A DNA stretch of 64,000 nucleotides, taken from assembly GCA_964453525.1 (NCBI GenBank), contig CAYVOV010000011.1, forward strand, positions 36,633 through 100,632, read 5' to 3'. This DNA comes from an uncultured Dehalococcoidales bacterium. Lineage in GTDB: Bacteria; Chloroflexota; Dehalococcoidia; Dehalococcoidales; UBA2162. Both the position numbers and the translations under genes were made by a program. The notes under the pieces were generated by a model. It ran no database searches and was not told the origin of the DNA. It saw only the letters and a list, made by a program, of their open reading frames with translations. Positions within the stretch are counted from its first letter, which is position 1. Each line of letters opens with the position of its first letter. Positions 50,153 to 60,885 of this stretch are shown piece by piece.

Positions 50153-51802
50153 ATGGGGTGCAAACTTAGACGAATTTTATATTGCTTTGCCCTGGTAGTG
50201 TTCATTGTATCGCTTGTTTTTGTTGTTACCGGCTCTCCCGCTTTCTCGTCACCTCCTGGTTCCCTCCCTGAGCCCATTATTACTGGAAACTCCCTGGAAA
50301 TCTGTTTAAATAGTCGATATTCATTTCATGGCCAGAGTGGCAATCTTAGTGACCAGCAACTCAGCAATATTATGTGGGCTGCAGCGATGGTCCCATACGC
50401 AGGGACTAACAGAACTATATATGTCACTACAGTGAATGGCACATATCAATATCACACGGACAATAACTCACTTAGTTACTATTCAAGTGAAAACACAGTC
50501 ACAGGAACCTACACCGAAGCTGATGTCTTTCTTAACTATGATGTGGAGCTCAATTTTGATAGAGGGGCTTCGTACATGGCGGCATTGCTTGCTGCCGTTT
50601 CTCTGTGGGAGAGCAGCGAACAGCCGGTAACGACTGGTCCAAGAGGCGATGGTGCTTATTTTGGATTATCAGCCTCTGAAACACTAACCTCTACGCCGGT
50701 AGCAATTTCTTCTAACGCATCATTGCCGACCCCCTCGATGGATGGGGATAATACCGTCGAAGGAGTGCTGGCTAATCTGAATTACACCGACAATTTTACC
50801 AGCGACAATTTAACACTACAGCAGATTTCCCAGCTTCTATGGGCAGGATACGGCTGCACTGATCACATTATAGGTCCTCAGATGGGCTTGACAGTCCCTT
50901 CGGCCTGGGCTGACTATTATTTAACCCAGTGTATATATATGTTAAATGAAAACGGTGCCTACCGTTATCATTGCAGGAATCCCGGCGATAACCTGACCAC
51001 CAGAGACCATAGAATCGAGCAGACAGTATTCAGTGATGTCAGGGATGATTTGCAGAATGATGTCAGTGGATTACCTGACGCACCCTGCTATGTAATAATC
51101 TGCCTCGATTATGACTATATAAATTCAATACCTCCTTCACACGGTGATAATGTGACGCTAGAGGGATATGCTCTCCTGGAAACAGGTTTTGTTTCTTCTA
51201 ATATACTCTTGCAAGCATCGGCGCTTGATTTAGGAGCTTACTTTGAGCCTGAGCTAACCACAGGTGAATCATTAGCTGTTAGAAGCACTGCCAATATAAG
51301 CACGTGGCAGGTACCCAAGGTAATAGTCAGCATCGGCAACCCGGCTCAAACACGCACTCTCGCTTCTTATAGTAACGAATCGCACACCACCGCTTGCGAT
51401 GACTTCGATGAACCTGTCACTGAGAGCACAGCTTATATGTATGGTACCAACCTGCTACCCAACCATGATTACCGTGTAGCCTACTATGATGGTAGCGATA
51501 ATAAGACCTTCACCCATGATGTTACCTCTGGCGCATCGGGGAACTTATCAAGCCAGCGCACCTTTGAGGAGGGGTCTGATACCGCCGGTGCCTGGAATGT
51601 TATCGTTTGTGAGCCTTACCTCACACCCCCAACTTCGTATAATGGTAGCTGGGCGTTCATCAACGCCAGCGATAGCTTTACCGTCGAGGAGTCGGCTATT
51701 CCCGAGTTTCCCACTGTTCTGGTGGCTATTTTAGCCCTTAGCCTTTGTGTCGGGATATACCTCTGGATGAGACGGAAAGCAGTCACAGTAGCCACTTCTT
51801 AA
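50153..51802 (+). CDS. Secreted SagB/nitroreductase-fold protein with a C-terminal PEF-CTERM sorting signal
   Basis: Signal peptide; two SagB-like segments (LSDQQLSNIMWAA and LTLQQISQLLWAGYG...PSA); ends IPEFP-TM-RRK. Confidence 0.75.
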   Translation: MGCKLRRILYCFALVVFIVSLVFVVTGSPAFSSPPGSLPEPIITGNSLEICLNSRYSFHGQSGNLSDQQLSNIMWAAAMVPYAGTNRTIYVTTVNGTYQYHTDNNSLSYYSSENTVTGTYTEADVFLNYDVELNFDRGASYMAALLAAVSLWESSEQPVTTGPRGDGAYFGLSASETLTSTPVAISSNASLPTPSMDGDNTVEGVLANLNYTDNFTSDNLTLQQISQLLWAGYGCTDHIIGPQMGLTVPSAWADYYLTQCIYMLNENGAYRYHCRNPGDNLTTRDHRIEQTVFSDVRDDLQNDVSGLPDAPCYVIICLDYDYINSIPPSHGDNVTLEGYALLETGFVSSNILLQASALDLGAYFEPELTTGESLAVRSTANISTWQVPKVIVSIGNPAQTRTLASYSNESHTTACDDFDEPVTESTAYMYGTNLLPNHDYRVAYYDGSDNKTFTHDVTSGASGNLSSQRTFEEGSDTAGAWNVIVCEPYLTPPTSYNGSWAFINASDSFTVEESAIPEFPTVLVAILALSLCVGIYLWMRRKAVTVATS

Positions 51803-51951
51803 AGCTCTAAATTCCAAAACGATTTATCTTTATCCGGCAATGAATCAGTCTCCCCGAAGGACATTGCTCCGTGCCCCACCCCCTGATTCAAGCTGGGTTG
51901 ATTTTAAGTATGATATTTTCGTAGCCGGTGACTATATTTATTTAATTCAGG

Positions 51952-51963
51952 CACGCTACCGCC
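51952..51963 (-). promoter_or_regulatory. ops element (operon polarity suppressor), JUMPstart-like
   Basis: The minus strand reads GGCGGTAGCGTG, an exact match to the ops consensus. It is preceded by a GGC-GTGA-GCC hairpin and lies 112 nt downstream of the RfaH-like gene. Confidence 0.85.
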
Positions 51964-58544: not shown

Positions 58545-58548
58545 AAGA

Positions 58549-60885
58549 GTGATAAAAAGGTATTTTACTATTCTGGCCGTCCTTGTTCTCCTGGTACCGC
58601 TTGTACTCGGAGGAGCGGTTTCAACTCCTGTCACCTCAGCCCAGGAAGACGGGAACGGCAAAATTAGCGGACTCCTCCGTCTTCAGGTTGAAGTAAAGCT
58701 CAGTGCTCAGGAAAGAGGGCAATTAAGTGAAGGTCAGGCCGTTATTTTGCAGTCGATGCAGGAAGAAGGCCTGGCAATCCCGGACCTGACAATGCAGAGG
58801 ATATTCATCCATTTCGATGAAAAGCCGGATGAAATGCAGATTTCAGAGCTTGAGTCCATGGGGCTGAAAGTTTACCCGGACTCCTGGATACCACCGGTCG
58901 GGATACACCCCACCGGGTTTATCATCGCCGATATGCCGGTGGATAAGCTGGGCGTGCTGGCAGAGAAGAACTACGTAGCCAGGCTGGATACCGCCGAGAC
59001 CACACTCGAGCCGCATAATGACAACGCTACCGGGGCAATCAATGCCGACAACGTTTGGACAGGCTACAACGGCAGCGGCGTCGTTATCTGCGTTATTGAC
59101 TCCGGTCTTGATGTGACTCACGCCGATATCCCGCCGCCGGTCGCCAGCAAGGACTACTTCGACTATCCCAATCTAAACGATTCAATCGAAAATTTTTATG
59201 GCGGTACCGGTCACGGCACTCACGTAACAGGAAGCGCCCTGGGCAGAGCATCGAATACCGTTAATAGCACCTATAACGGCACGGCGCCGGGTGCCGACCT
59301 CGTTTTCCTCAAGATAGGCGGTGACACCACCACCTCTGCCAATACATCGGCAATGATAGGCGCTGTGATGGCAGCTACCGATAACTATTCGGCGGATATA
59401 ATCACGATGAGCTATGGAAGCTGGAGCACCTATCATGATGGGACAAGCGAGACAGCACAGGCTGTCGATTACGCGGTAAGCCAGGGAGTGGTGGTGTTTA
59501 TCTCCGCCGGTAATGACGCTGATGACGACCAGCATTACCTGGGTACCGTTGCTAATAATTCGTGGAGCGACTGGATAGAGGTAGATGTTTCCGCCACCAG
59601 CTACCTGTATTTTAACCTGGTCTGGTATGACGGTGACCCCAGTAACGACCTGGAACTATCTGCCTATTACTCTCAGGACACGGGAGACCCGATTGAGCCA
59701 TATACTTCTTTTAGCCAGACAGAAAGCGACCGTGGGACGGAAAGTGAGTACTCTTACTATGGTTCGGGTGGCACGCTCAATTCGACTGCTCCCGGTACTT
59801 ACTATTTAAGGGTACTTAACTCGTCGGATTATTCGCAGGACTTTCATATATATGCTCTGACCAGCTATGTGACCTTTGCCAGTGCCAACGCCAGTTACAC
59901 AGTCGGCTCTCCGGCTGAAGCAGATAGTGCTATCGCTGTCGGTTCTTACAATACCAGGCAAATATGGTACGCTGCCAATAACTCAGGTTACTGGTATCCC
60001 AATGACCCAAAGTACCAGATTTCTACCTTCAGCAGTCGGGGACCCAGGGTGGATACCGGAGCTCCGGATAAGGTCAATATTATTGCTCCCGGCGGTGCTA
60101 TTATTTCCTGCCGCGATACGGACGCGTATCCATGGTTGGCAGGGAATATTACTGCCTACAGTCATTTTATTATTGATAATGACGGGCCAAACAGGAGCAA
60201 TGCCAGCGGCGGCTCCAATGACAACCAAGGCCCGGCAGATTACTACATAATGCGGGGGACATCAATGGCCTGTCCTATCGCTGCCGGGGTCGCTGCCCTG
60301 GTTCTGGAAGCACATCCCACCTGGACACCGGCTCAGGTCAGACATGCCCTTGAATCCTCTAACGGGTCTGTCAGCTACAATAATACATACGGCTGGGGAC
60401 TGATAGATGCCCTGGCAGCAGTCAATACTTCCTTGCCTGTTACAGCATCTTACAGTGATGCCTCGCACAGCACCTCCTGTGATGAATTCGATGAACCTGT
60501 CAATGAGAGTACAGCTTACATGGACATCACTGGCTTGCTGCCCAACCATAATTACCGGGTAGCCTATTATGACGGTAGCGATAACAATACATATACCGAT
60601 AGTGATGCAATCTCCAGCGCGACTGGGAACGTATCCAGTGAGCATGAGTTTCAACTGGGGCAGGATGAGGCCGGAACCTGGCATGTTATCGTTTGTGAGC
60701 CTGATTTTGACCCGCCCAATACCTATAATGGAAGCTGGTCATACATTATCTCCAGCGATACCTTTACCGTTCAGCAATCGGCAATCCCCGAGTTTCCCAC
60801 TGTTATTGCCGCGGTGATTGCCTTCAGCCTCTGCGCTGCAATATACCTCGGGATAAGAAGGAAAGCAGTCCCGGTCCACGCTTAA
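58549..60885 (+). CDS. S8 subtilisin-like serine protease with a PEF-CTERM sorting signal
   Basis: Signal peptide, prodomain, catalytic triad VIDSG / GHGTHVTG / GTSMACP, oxyanion Asn in SAGN, and C-terminal IPEFP-TM-RRK. Confidence 0.92.
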   Translation: MIKRYFTILAVLVLLVPLVLGGAVSTPVTSAQEDGNGKISGLLRLQVEVKLSAQERGQLSEGQAVILQSMQEEGLAIPDLTMQRIFIHFDEKPDEMQISELESMGLKVYPDSWIPPVGIHPTGFIIADMPVDKLGVLAEKNYVARLDTAETTLEPHNDNATGAINADNVWTGYNGSGVVICVIDSGLDVTHADIPPPVASKDYFDYPNLNDSIENFYGGTGHGTHVTGSALGRASNTVNSTYNGTAPGADLVFLKIGGDTTTSANTSAMIGAVMAATDNYSADIITMSYGSWSTYHDGTSETAQAVDYAVSQGVVVFISAGNDADDDQHYLGTVANNSWSDWIEVDVSATSYLYFNLVWYDGDPSNDLELSAYYSQDTGDPIEPYTSFSQTESDRGTESEYSYYGSGGTLNSTAPGTYYLRVLNSSDYSQDFHIYALTSYVTFASANASYTVGSPAEADSAIAVGSYNTRQIWYAANNSGYWYPNDPKYQISTFSSRGPRVDTGAPDKVNIIAPGGAIISCRDTDAYPWLAGNITAYSHFIIDNDGPNRSNASGGSNDNQGPADYYIMRGTSMACPIAAGVAALVLEAHPTWTPAQVRHALESSNGSVSYNNTYGWGLIDALAAVNTSLPVTASYSDASHSTSCDEFDEPVNESTAYMDITGLLPNHNYRVAYYDGSDNNTYTDSDAISSATGNVSSEHEFQLGQDEAGTWHVIVCEPDFDPPNTYNGSWSYIISSDTFTVQQSAIPEFPTVIAAVIAFSLCAAIYLGIRRKAVPVHA

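Follow-up and report, generated by a model that had tools for sequence, protein, structure and literature searches.

Sequon-rich, PEF-tailed surface proteins in an uncultured Dehalococcoidales bacterium: a possible case of N-glycosylation with serine or threonine at -2

Two sortase-tagged proteins at the locus

The stretch of DNA analysed here (hereafter the window, 64,000 nucleotides from an uncultured Dehalococcoidales bacterium) encodes two secreted proteins that end in a PEF-type sorting tail, a tandem nitroreductase-fold protein and an S8 subtilase, together with a membrane enzyme that presumably processes them. Both proteins contain far more N-X-S/T sequons than their composition predicts, and more than half of these sequons carry a further serine or threonine two residues before the asparagine, a pattern that may reflect continuing selection for N-glycosylation at the cell surface. 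The genes and segments concerned are as follows.

50153..51802, + strand: secreted tandem nitroreductase-fold ('SagB-like') protein, 549 residues, with signal peptide, C-terminal stalk module and PEF-type tail
51362..51799, + strand: C-terminal module of the SagB-like protein (beta-rich, ~110 residues), then AIPEFP, a transmembrane helix and RRK
58549..60885, + strand: S8 subtilase pre-pro-enzyme, 778 residues, with jelly-roll insert, C-terminal stalk module and PEF-type tail (PF00082, 162 bits)
60445..60882, + strand: C-terminal module and PEF-type tail of the subtilase, including sequon N694 (sgNVS)
61755..62648, + strand: exosortase/archaeosortase-family transpeptidase, presumed processing enzyme of both PEF-tailed proteins

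Both cargo proteins carry signal peptides. The SagB-like protein, which would be 559 residues long if started at an upstream ATG (50123), found its best fold match in 3eo7, a tandem nitroreductase fold (E = 9e-12). It scored under the cut-offs of both relevant families (TIGR03605 SagB, 22 bits vs 78.4; PF00881 Nitroreductase, 21.2 vs 23.5), so that 'SagB-like' names a fold and not a family. A flavoenzyme fold outside the cell is in itself unusual. The closest folds to the subtilase are CspB and Tk-SP, and its catalytic triad and oxyanion asparagine (D184, H222, N322, S572) are invariant in 47 homologues. In the AlphaFold (AF2) models the mean predicted local distance difference test score was 81 for the subtilase and 69 for the SagB-like protein.

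The C-terminal modules of the two proteins are 65% identical over 144 residues, and both end in the same tripartite tail of AIPEFPTV, about 20 hydrophobic residues and RRK. The 144-residue module carries five or six sequons. These tails score below the cut-off of 23 bits of the PEF-CTERM model TIGR03024 (14.9 bits for the SagB-like protein, 9.4 for the subtilase). The orthologous subtilase P0002 has the string NKTFTHDVTS, which in the window is found in the SagB-like protein; the sequences thus suggest that modules may be exchanged, or may evolve in concert, between the cargo genes. Across Chloroflexota and Planctomycetota, both this S8 family and secreted proteins of the nitroreductase fold come with interchangeable C-terminal anchors (dockerin-like, PEF tail, or transmembrane helix plus basic tail), a hint that the two enzymes might act as a surface pair.

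Within the window, sequon excess is confined to the PEF-tailed proteins

The initial annotation had counted by hand 16 of 35 asparagines of the SagB-like protein and 22 of 46 of the subtilase in sequons, and our recount of N-X(not P)-S/T returned exactly these numbers. It had also proposed a comparison with shuffled sequences, and the excess stood up to it. Whole-protein shuffles predicted 6.5 sequons in the SagB-like protein (z = 4.3) and 7.9 in the subtilase (z = 5.7; p ~1e-4, 0 of 20,000 shuffles). Shuffling within blocks of 10-50 residues, which keeps local composition, gave z scores of 3.8-4.0 and 5.1-5.2, respectively, whereas the products of 46 other open reading frames (ORFs) in the window ranged from -2.0 to +2.1. 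Composition was therefore rejected as the cause, since the excess survives both kinds of shuffle and the control motifs described below.

All the sequons of the subtilase lie in its mature part (residues 159-727), at a density of 22 per ~590 mature residues; the SagB-like protein has 16 per ~485. Neither protein contains N-P-S/T. In the AF2 models every sequon asparagine of the SagB-like protein is in coil, compared with 10 of its 19 other asparagines (p = 0.0015). The proportion in the subtilase is 16 of 22, often at strand ends, which brings the two proteins together to 32 of 38. The earlier observation that sequons are missing from the subtilase prodomain and from a stand-alone prodomain-like protein encoded just upstream is correct and carries little weight, because the prodomain (residues 1-157) has only 3 asparagines and the 185-residue stand-alone protein, with 0 sequons among 10 asparagines, was expected to have 1.06.

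An asparagine-centred, five-residue motif

The residue at -2 separates sequon asparagines from the others. Serine or threonine occupies this position at 21 of 38 sequon asparagines (55%) and at 4 of 43 other asparagines (9%; Fisher p = 9e-6). Aspartate or glutamate, by comparison, is found there at 5 of the 43 others and at none of the 38; given the D+E content of the proteins, the chance of 0/38 is 0.011. The initial annotation had most sequons lacking an acidic -2 residue. The full motif [ST]xNx[ST] occurs 11 times in the subtilase and 10 times in the SagB-like protein. The expectations were 1.4 and 1.3, and none of 50,000 shuffles went above 8.

None of the control motifs [ST]x[ST], Dx[ST], Gx[ST], Qx[ST], Nxx[ST] and Nx[AG] was enriched in the two proteins. 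For [ST]x[ST] we obtained z scores of 0.4 and -0.9, while Dx[ST], Gx[ST] and Qx[ST] stayed near 0 or below it. As these couplings between positions i and i+2 are at expectation, generic polar alternation is not the cause. Beta-strand periodicity of polar residues was rejected as well, given that [ST]x[ST] is not enriched and that the sequon asparagines are in coil.

The two flanking positions are not equivalent. Serine or threonine is found at -2 and +2 of 13 and 16 asparagines, respectively, in the SagB-like protein, and of 12 and 22 in the subtilase. Among the 25 asparagines with S/T at -2, 21 also have it at +2, whereas 17 sequon asparagines lack it at -2. Since S/T at -2 is rare without S/T at +2 and the reverse is common, N-X-S/T is the core of the motif and the -2 residue a modifier. 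The signal is centred on asparagine.

A non-acidic -2 residue has precedents among bacteria. Surveyed bacterial N-oligosaccharyltransferases come from Epsilonproteobacteria and, in smaller numbers, from Deltaproteobacteria and Aquificae (PMC4894442). In Desulfovibrio, the native site of D. gigas HmcA is T-A-N-G-T, with a non-acidic -2; DdPglB favours A, Q or S at -2, and DvPglB hardly uses D/E (PMC4894442). Because Desulfovibrio PglBs prefer a non-acidic -2 residue, the missing D/E is not by itself a pointer to archaea.

The signal extends to other surface proteins

In the sister metagenome-assembled genome (MAG) GCA_042573765.1 the place of the S8 subtilase is taken by a papain-like C1 protease that also has a lectin-like domain (locus L013, 7248..9146). 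The protease shares the C-terminal module and PEF tail and has 10 sequons compared with 5.2 expected; a C1 protease in the S8 position of the cassette indicates that the cargo is exchangeable. An exhaustive search for the module and tail returned 369 cluster representatives, 145 of which we examined for sequons. These 145 contained 1025 sequons vs 744 expected and 327 [ST]xNx[ST] motifs vs 148, with z > 2 in 27 of them and z < -2 in 1. Around the sortase clade, in 59 metagenome loci, PEF-tailed ORFs had 165 sequons where 120 were expected, and 231 neighbouring ORFs had 260 where 267.5 were expected. Judged by these sequences, the signal tracks sorting class and genome, and not fold.

The genome also holds a second set of enriched proteins. 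The contig L003, from the Logan collection, matches the window over 5041 bases without a mismatch and extends 9.6 kb downstream. It carries, at 10307..14687 (~6.6 to 9.6 kb past the window end), six prepilin-like genes, one of them with a Pfam N_methyl match. Their products contain 18 sequons against 10.0 expected (p = 0.006) and 10 [ST]xNx[ST] motifs against 1.6 (p < 5e-5). A second, unrelated class of surface protein of the organism therefore has the same extended motif. Known bacterial type IV pilins are O-glycosylated, and archaeal type IV pilins are N-glycosylated. Four further Chloroflexota surface proteins (P0016, P0032, P0080 and P0468) are even richer, with 36/70, 36/77, 41/101 and 47/106 asparagines in sequons and about half of the sites in the form [ST]xNx[ST], which takes the phenomenon beyond this cassette.

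Gain of sequons in proteins of bacterial descent

Named homologues of the distinctive genes of the window are nearly all from MAGs of Chloroflexota, Dehalococcoidia or Dehalococcoidales, with a few more distant matches in Planctomycetota, in keeping with the bacterial source of the window. Both cargo proteins and the sortase likewise found their best matches in Chloroflexota (Dehalococcoidia or Dehalococcoidales). Among 120 homologues of the SagB-like protein, the only enriched ones were the window protein itself (z = 4.4) and a 73%-identical PEF-tailed orthologue (z = 3.5); the other 118, which lack the PEF tail and come from Chloroflexota, Phycisphaerae and Planctomycetota, had a mean z of -0.3. 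Bacterial best matches and sequon-poor homologues argue that the sequons were gained on bacterial backbones and not inherited, and sequence comparison shows the cargo domains to be of bacterial (Chloroflexota) ancestry.

The direction of change could be read from a close relative. Compared with an 80%-identical orthologue, the subtilase has 18 private asparagines, 10 of them in sequons (binomial p = 4e-4), while in the reverse comparison only 2 of 11 private asparagines of the orthologue are in sequons. The gains were mostly D>N and G>N replacements ahead of a pre-existing S/T. Turnover was extensive: sequons fall in 66 alignment columns across 14 orthologues, and 3 or 4 of these columns are conserved. 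Enrichment among PEF-tailed subtilase orthologues ranges from z = 0 to 5.5, and the sequon-rich relatives are GCA_042573765.1, GCA_004196255.1, GCA_042575425.1 and the complete genome CP070676.1. These alignments show an enrichment that is derived and recent in this sub-lineage and still accumulating.

The sortase and its archaeal relatives

The only signature that the sortase passed was TIGR04178 (37.4 bits, cut-off 23); it fell well short of the named classes (ArtC, TIGR03762, 27.2 bits vs 100; EpsH, 30 vs 106). It is a polytopic membrane protein whose C187, R232 and H252 do not vary among 7 orthologues; published work on ArtA is our ground for regarding these three residues as catalytic. 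Its gene adjoins a PEF-tailed cargo gene in every locus.

The bacterial clade to which this sortase belongs is Dehalococcoidales; the sortase clade as a whole covers both domains of life and fits no named NCBIfam sortase class. The archaeosortase of Candidatus Methanoperedens is 36% identical to the window enzyme (E = 4e-55) and is likewise below the ArtC cut-off. Candidatus Methanoperedens and Candidatus Argoarchaeum are among the named organisms with proteins of the module family. Identity to the archaeal module is 35-42%, and homologues from both domains retain the N694 sequon of the module ('sgN[LVM]S'). In Candidatus Methanoperedens (GCA_049690315.1; L015, 691..8384), DUF1616, two CPBP proteases, an archaeosortase, a glycosyltransferase of family GT4, a deacetylase and one of family GT2 adjoin a PEF-tailed protein with 33 of 70 asparagines in sequons. 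With identities of only 35-42% for the sorting module and cassette and 36% for the sortase, the sharing with Methanosarcinales is not recent; the comparison supports an archaeal link that is old and confined to the sorting machinery (sortase, cassette and C-terminal module).

Archaea generally N-glycosylate surface proteins, and the initial annotation had read the sequons of the two proteins as the short archaeal type. In that form the reading was not supported. We grouped proteins as archaeal or Chloroflexota by tail type, an assignment inferred from few named members. Proteins with the archaeal-type tail have 36% of their asparagines in sequons, and S/T at -2 of 22% of sequon asparagines vs 17% of the others, which is not significant. 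The two Chloroflexota tail classes have S/T at -2 of 34-37% of sequon asparagines vs 18-22% of the others (p ~1e-4). In the window proteins, as described above, -2 is biased to S/T and excludes D/E. The absence of a -2 bias in the archaeal-type proteins makes the extended motif a bacterial feature and not an imported one.

The cassette around the sortase

The subtilase and sortase are part of a cassette on the + strand (56.8-64 kb), in the order DUF1616-like protein, membrane protein, prodomain-like protein, S8 subtilase, CPBP protease, sortase and Wzx-like flippase. The order is identical in the related loci L001, L004 and L013. Its remaining members are the following.

56798..57175, + strand: 125-residue protein with a transmembrane helix and a beta-rich domain; weak DUF1616 match (PF07760, E = 0.0048, under cut-off)
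57262..57972, + strand: 236-residue polytopic membrane protein without a family match, conserved across related loci
57987..58544, + strand: stand-alone prodomain-like protein, 185 residues; its N-terminal hydrophobic segment ends in Cys (possible lipoprotein)
60935..61732, + strand: CPBP (Rce1-like) intramembrane glutamic protease; NCBIfam CPBP and myxosortase-type matches, all under cut-offs
62689..63993, + strand: Wzx-like (Polysacc_synt_3) flippase, followed just past the window end by a membrane GT2

The 125-residue protein is kept in L001, L004, L008, L011, L012 and L013, and a full DUF1616 protein is present in the Methanoperedens cassette. The prodomain-like protein is 47% identical to residues 30-157 of the subtilase and has orthologues at the equivalent position in L001 and L004. 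Rce1-like genes adjoin the sortase in every related locus. In three genomes the sortase is followed by a Wzx-like flippase and a membrane GT2 that is PgaC-like or XrtG-associated-like (window 62689..63993 with L003 5107..6306; L004 6937..9262; L013 10873..13471), and L014 has a GT2 at a similar position. The product of this pair may be a cassette-linked polysaccharide or a lipid-linked sugar.

Neighbouring sugar-assembly genes

Upstream of the cassette, Pfam and NCBIfam scans delineated a large cluster of sugar genes with two further genes before it.

11609..49877, - strand: sugar-assembly cluster, 38 kb
52076..52633, - strand: RfaH/LoaP-like NusG paralogue, upstream of the sugar cluster
52648..54447, - strand: GlmS, upstream of the sugar cluster

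The cluster encodes an initiating transferase (a Bac_transf+GT4 fusion), further GT4s, two additional Wzx-like flippases, UDP-GlcNAc 2-epimerase, UDP-sugar dehydrogenase, WbpB/D-like proteins, DegT and PseC-like aminotransferases, WbqC, deacetylases, two AsnB-like amidotransferases, methyltransferases and PIG-L. Genes for the assembly of a lipid-linked oligosaccharide are thus present (the fusion, several GT4s and, in the window as a whole, three Wzx-like flippases, with BacA just downstream). The cluster is equally typical of an exopolysaccharide locus, given its Wzz and BY-kinase. Two of its GT4 paralogues (16790..17917 and 28990..30150, - strand) are 69% identical with near-identical N-termini, which indicates an internal duplication. 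A 445-residue polytopic membrane protein within the cluster (35778..37115) has no family assignment.

The SagB-like gene sits on the opposite strand between the sugar cluster and the RfaH-like/GlmS pair, whose order is repeated in the relative L005. At the 3' end of the cluster are a PqqD-like protein and an S24-like peptidase, placed on the + strand in our description of the cluster; by coordinates, the PqqD-family peptide-chaperone-like and S24-like peptidase genes (48946..49877) are listed on the - strand and divergent from the SagB-like gene. This puts a recognition element of the type found with ribosomally synthesized and post-translationally modified peptides beside a secreted SagB-fold protein.

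Alongside the Wzz/BY-kinase, the Bac_transf initiating transferase and the RfaH/LoaP-like paralogue, the window encodes two response regulators with OmpR-type domains (Response_reg and Trans_reg_C in a syntenic relative). The window lacks tRNA genes, and a 1.6-kb gap (1675..3329) contains small ORFs only. The upstream Logan contig ends inside the window, and the same-sample assembly breaks near window position ~2279. The guanine-plus-cytosine (GC) content of the cargo region equals that of its surroundings.

A possible N-glycosylation system and its rivals

Taken together, these sequence patterns are best explained, at about even odds, by ongoing selection for N-glycosylation at an extended sequon that would be neither of the Campylobacter nor of the archaeal type. 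What favours such selection is a signal that is non-compositional, asparagine-specific, located in loops, derived, still accumulating and recurrent in a second surface class. The suggestion of selection for N-glycosylation in the initial annotation is to that extent borne out, by the non-compositional, asparagine-specific, loop-located and recently gained signal; the alternative it offered, inheritance by recent transfer from an archaeon, is not, as the best matches of cargo and sortase are in Chloroflexota and the 118 bacterial homologues are poor in sequons.

A broader proposal, to which we give somewhat less than an even chance, is that this Dehalococcoidales sub-lineage has a general N-glycosylation system. 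It would act on sortase-anchored enzymes and pilin-like proteins at [S/T]-X-N-X-[S/T] through a divergent STT3 or a new transferase, alongside a cassette shared with Methanoperedens. To our knowledge it would be the first such N-glycosylation system in Chloroflexota. In the evenly weighed reading itself, we infer that the asparagines are glycosylated, and likewise the enzyme, the source of the donor and what the glycan does. Both proteins are cargo of a dedicated exosortase/archaeosortase-type cassette; they are exported and, presumably, cleaved at AIPEFP and anchored at the surface by the adjacent sortase. Ectodomains in the sub-lineage have accumulated N-X-S/T in surface loops, more than half as [S/T]-X-N-X-[S/T] and with acidic residues kept from -2, most likely because selection continues to favour densely N-glycosylated surface proteins. 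The transferase, whether an oligosaccharyltransferase or another N-glycosyltransferase, would have its gene outside the window and would prefer acceptors unlike those of Campylobacter PglB and archaeal AglB. The 38-kb sugar cluster could be a source of the lipid-linked glycan donor, and one role of the glycan might be to shield surface proteases. The envelope of Dehalococcoidia has been described as archaeal-like, wall-less and protein-coated.

Several results weigh against N-glycosylation. Elsewhere in the window, secreted proteins show no excess: a 1449-residue Big_9/cadherin protein has 10 sequons vs 9.6 expected, and a NosD-like beta-helix protein (38..1675), rich in asparagine (73), has 10 vs 10.1. 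Nor is there enrichment in several orthologues from Dehalococcoidales that have this cassette (z = 0 to 0.3); CP070645.1 and CAZNSC01 likewise bear the cassette and are not enriched. Pfam and NCBIfam scans found no STT3/AglB/PglB or GT41 among the window ORFs of at least 150 residues. No WWDxG motif turned up in six-frame translations of the 655,560 bases to which the search was confined (the window and 75 related loci). A phmmer search of the same bases with CjPglB gave no match at E <= 10; the query, validated against PDB 3aag and 5ogl, is too distant to reach a putative Chloroflexota enzyme. STT3 was not seen in the neighbourhoods of sequon-rich relatives or in the genome-contig and metagenome-contig scans made with the sortase query, and the 9.6 kb downstream of the window yielded no oligosaccharyltransferase. 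A full-text literature search returned, among the papers it covered, no link of Chloroflexota or Dehalococcoidia to N-glycosylation, oligosaccharyltransferase, PglB, STT3 or sequons. Finally, we know of no mechanistic basis described for a -2 S/T preference in known oligosaccharyltransferases.

The main rival, which we hold unlikely but take seriously, is that the sites are unmodified and that [S/T]-X-N-X-[S/T] serves structure or solubility on exposed loops of these surface proteins in this lineage, for example by joining an ST-turn to an Asx-turn or by providing a hydrated polar surface. That N-X-S/T forms Asx-turns is general knowledge. S/T is raised on both sides of the asparagine, no transferase was found, and enrichment among orthologues is patchy, all of which fit this explanation. 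It is harder to reconcile with the lack of any general i/i+2 polar coupling, with the 118 other bacterial proteins that have the same folds without the motif, and with gains that are recent and directional. Moreover, S/T at -2 without S/T at +2 accounts for only 4 of 25 cases, an asymmetry like that of a sequon, and the motif recurs in the unrelated S8, C1, nitroreductase-like and pilin-like folds.

N-glycosylation by an enzyme other than STT3, either a cytoplasmic HMW1C/NGT-like (N-glycosyltransferase-like, GT41) protein or an undescribed N-glycosyltransferase acting before or during export, strikes us as improbable. It would explain the sequon signal equally well and would fit the absence of STT3 near any cassette, and the unusual -2 preference suggests an unusual enzyme. 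No window protein has a GT41 Pfam match, however (the rest of the genome was outside this search), and known NGTs are few, are found in Proteobacteria and act on adhesins.

Marginally less probable again is O-glycosylation of the flanking Ser/Thr directed by a short asparagine-containing motif, by analogy with the D-S/T-hydrophobic motif of Bacteroidota. Hydroxyl residues do flank the asparagine on both sides, and the Wzx-type sugar cluster offers its 445-residue membrane protein as a ligase-like candidate. That protein, however, has no Wzy_C or O-antigen-ligase match, the pattern is asparagine-centred and hierarchical (+2 without -2, not the reverse), and the archaeal proteins that share the module are rich in N-X-S/T in the classic manner; we know of no O-glycosylation motif that requires asparagine.

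Least probable of all, and rejected as an origin for the cargo genes, is a relic of recent archaeal transfer decaying neutrally: the module, tail, sortase and cassette logic do have homologues in Methanoperedens and Argoarchaeum, and the N694 module sequon is conserved across both domains, but most sequons are held by catalytic domains whose relatives are bacterial only and sequon-poor, sequons were gained and not lost relative to close bacterial orthologues (a directional increase that rules out decay), archaeal identities are distant (35-42% for the module, 36% for the sortase) with no -2 bias in archaea, and GC content matches the surroundings.

If the N-glycosylation reading is true, it would extend N-glycosylation to a large and environmentally dominant phylum, Chloroflexota. 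It would also add a new acceptor rule, [S/T] at -2, of possible use in glycoengineering, and give a concrete case of archaeosortase-type sorting and protein glycosylation travelling together across the domain boundary. If the sites are unglycosylated, an asparagine-centred five-residue motif that has been repeatedly gained in unrelated surface proteins still needs an explanation.

Comparison with known systems

The HMW1C/NGT systems resemble the one proposed here in that bacteria without STT3 use N-X-S/T, at many sites on large surface proteins, as is generally known. They differ in that the known examples are proteobacterial adhesin systems, while the window has no GT41 gene. Campylobacter jejuni PglB likewise has a five-residue acceptor with an informative -2 position and draws a lipid-linked glycan from a dedicated sugar locus. 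It needs D/E at -2, however, which is found at 0 of the 38 sites here, and no pglB-like gene was detected in the searched sequence.

Desulfovibrio PglB provides an example of bacterial N-glycosylation without D/E at -2, and the D. gigas site T-A-N-G-T fits [S/T]-X-N-X-[S/T]. Those organisms are diderm Desulfobacterota with periplasmic substrates and no described saturation with sequons, whereas in our case no PglB homologue was found. High density of consensus sites is a feature shared with heavily glycosylated archaeal surface proteins, among them Sulfolobus acidocaldarius SlaA, for which 31 sites are predicted (PMC2948927); glycosylation was shown experimentally there and is inferred here.

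The PEF-CTERM/archaeosortase C system of Methanosarcinales (TIGR03024/TIGR03762) has the same AIPEFP, transmembrane helix and basic tail, homologous modules, and in Methanoperedens a cassette with DUF1616, CPBP, sortase and glycosyltransferases. In contrast to that system, the window tails and both sortases score below the family cut-offs, the bacterial proteins form a separate clade, and the archaeal proteins lack the -2 bias.

The S-layer glycoprotein of Haloferax volcanii combines a tripartite C-terminal signal, archaeosortase processing and N-X-S/T sites (PMC8559796, PMC3892788). The window parallels this PGF-CTERM/ArtA/AglB system in its tripartite tail, its archaeosortase-family enzyme, its N-X-S/T-bearing cargo and a sugar cluster nearby. 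Here, however, the organism is a bacterium, no AglB was found, the tail is PEF-like and not PGF, the sortase falls in a clade without a name, S/T is favoured at -2, and the cargo consists of enzymes (S8, nitroreductase-like and, in a relative, C1) in place of an S-layer protein.

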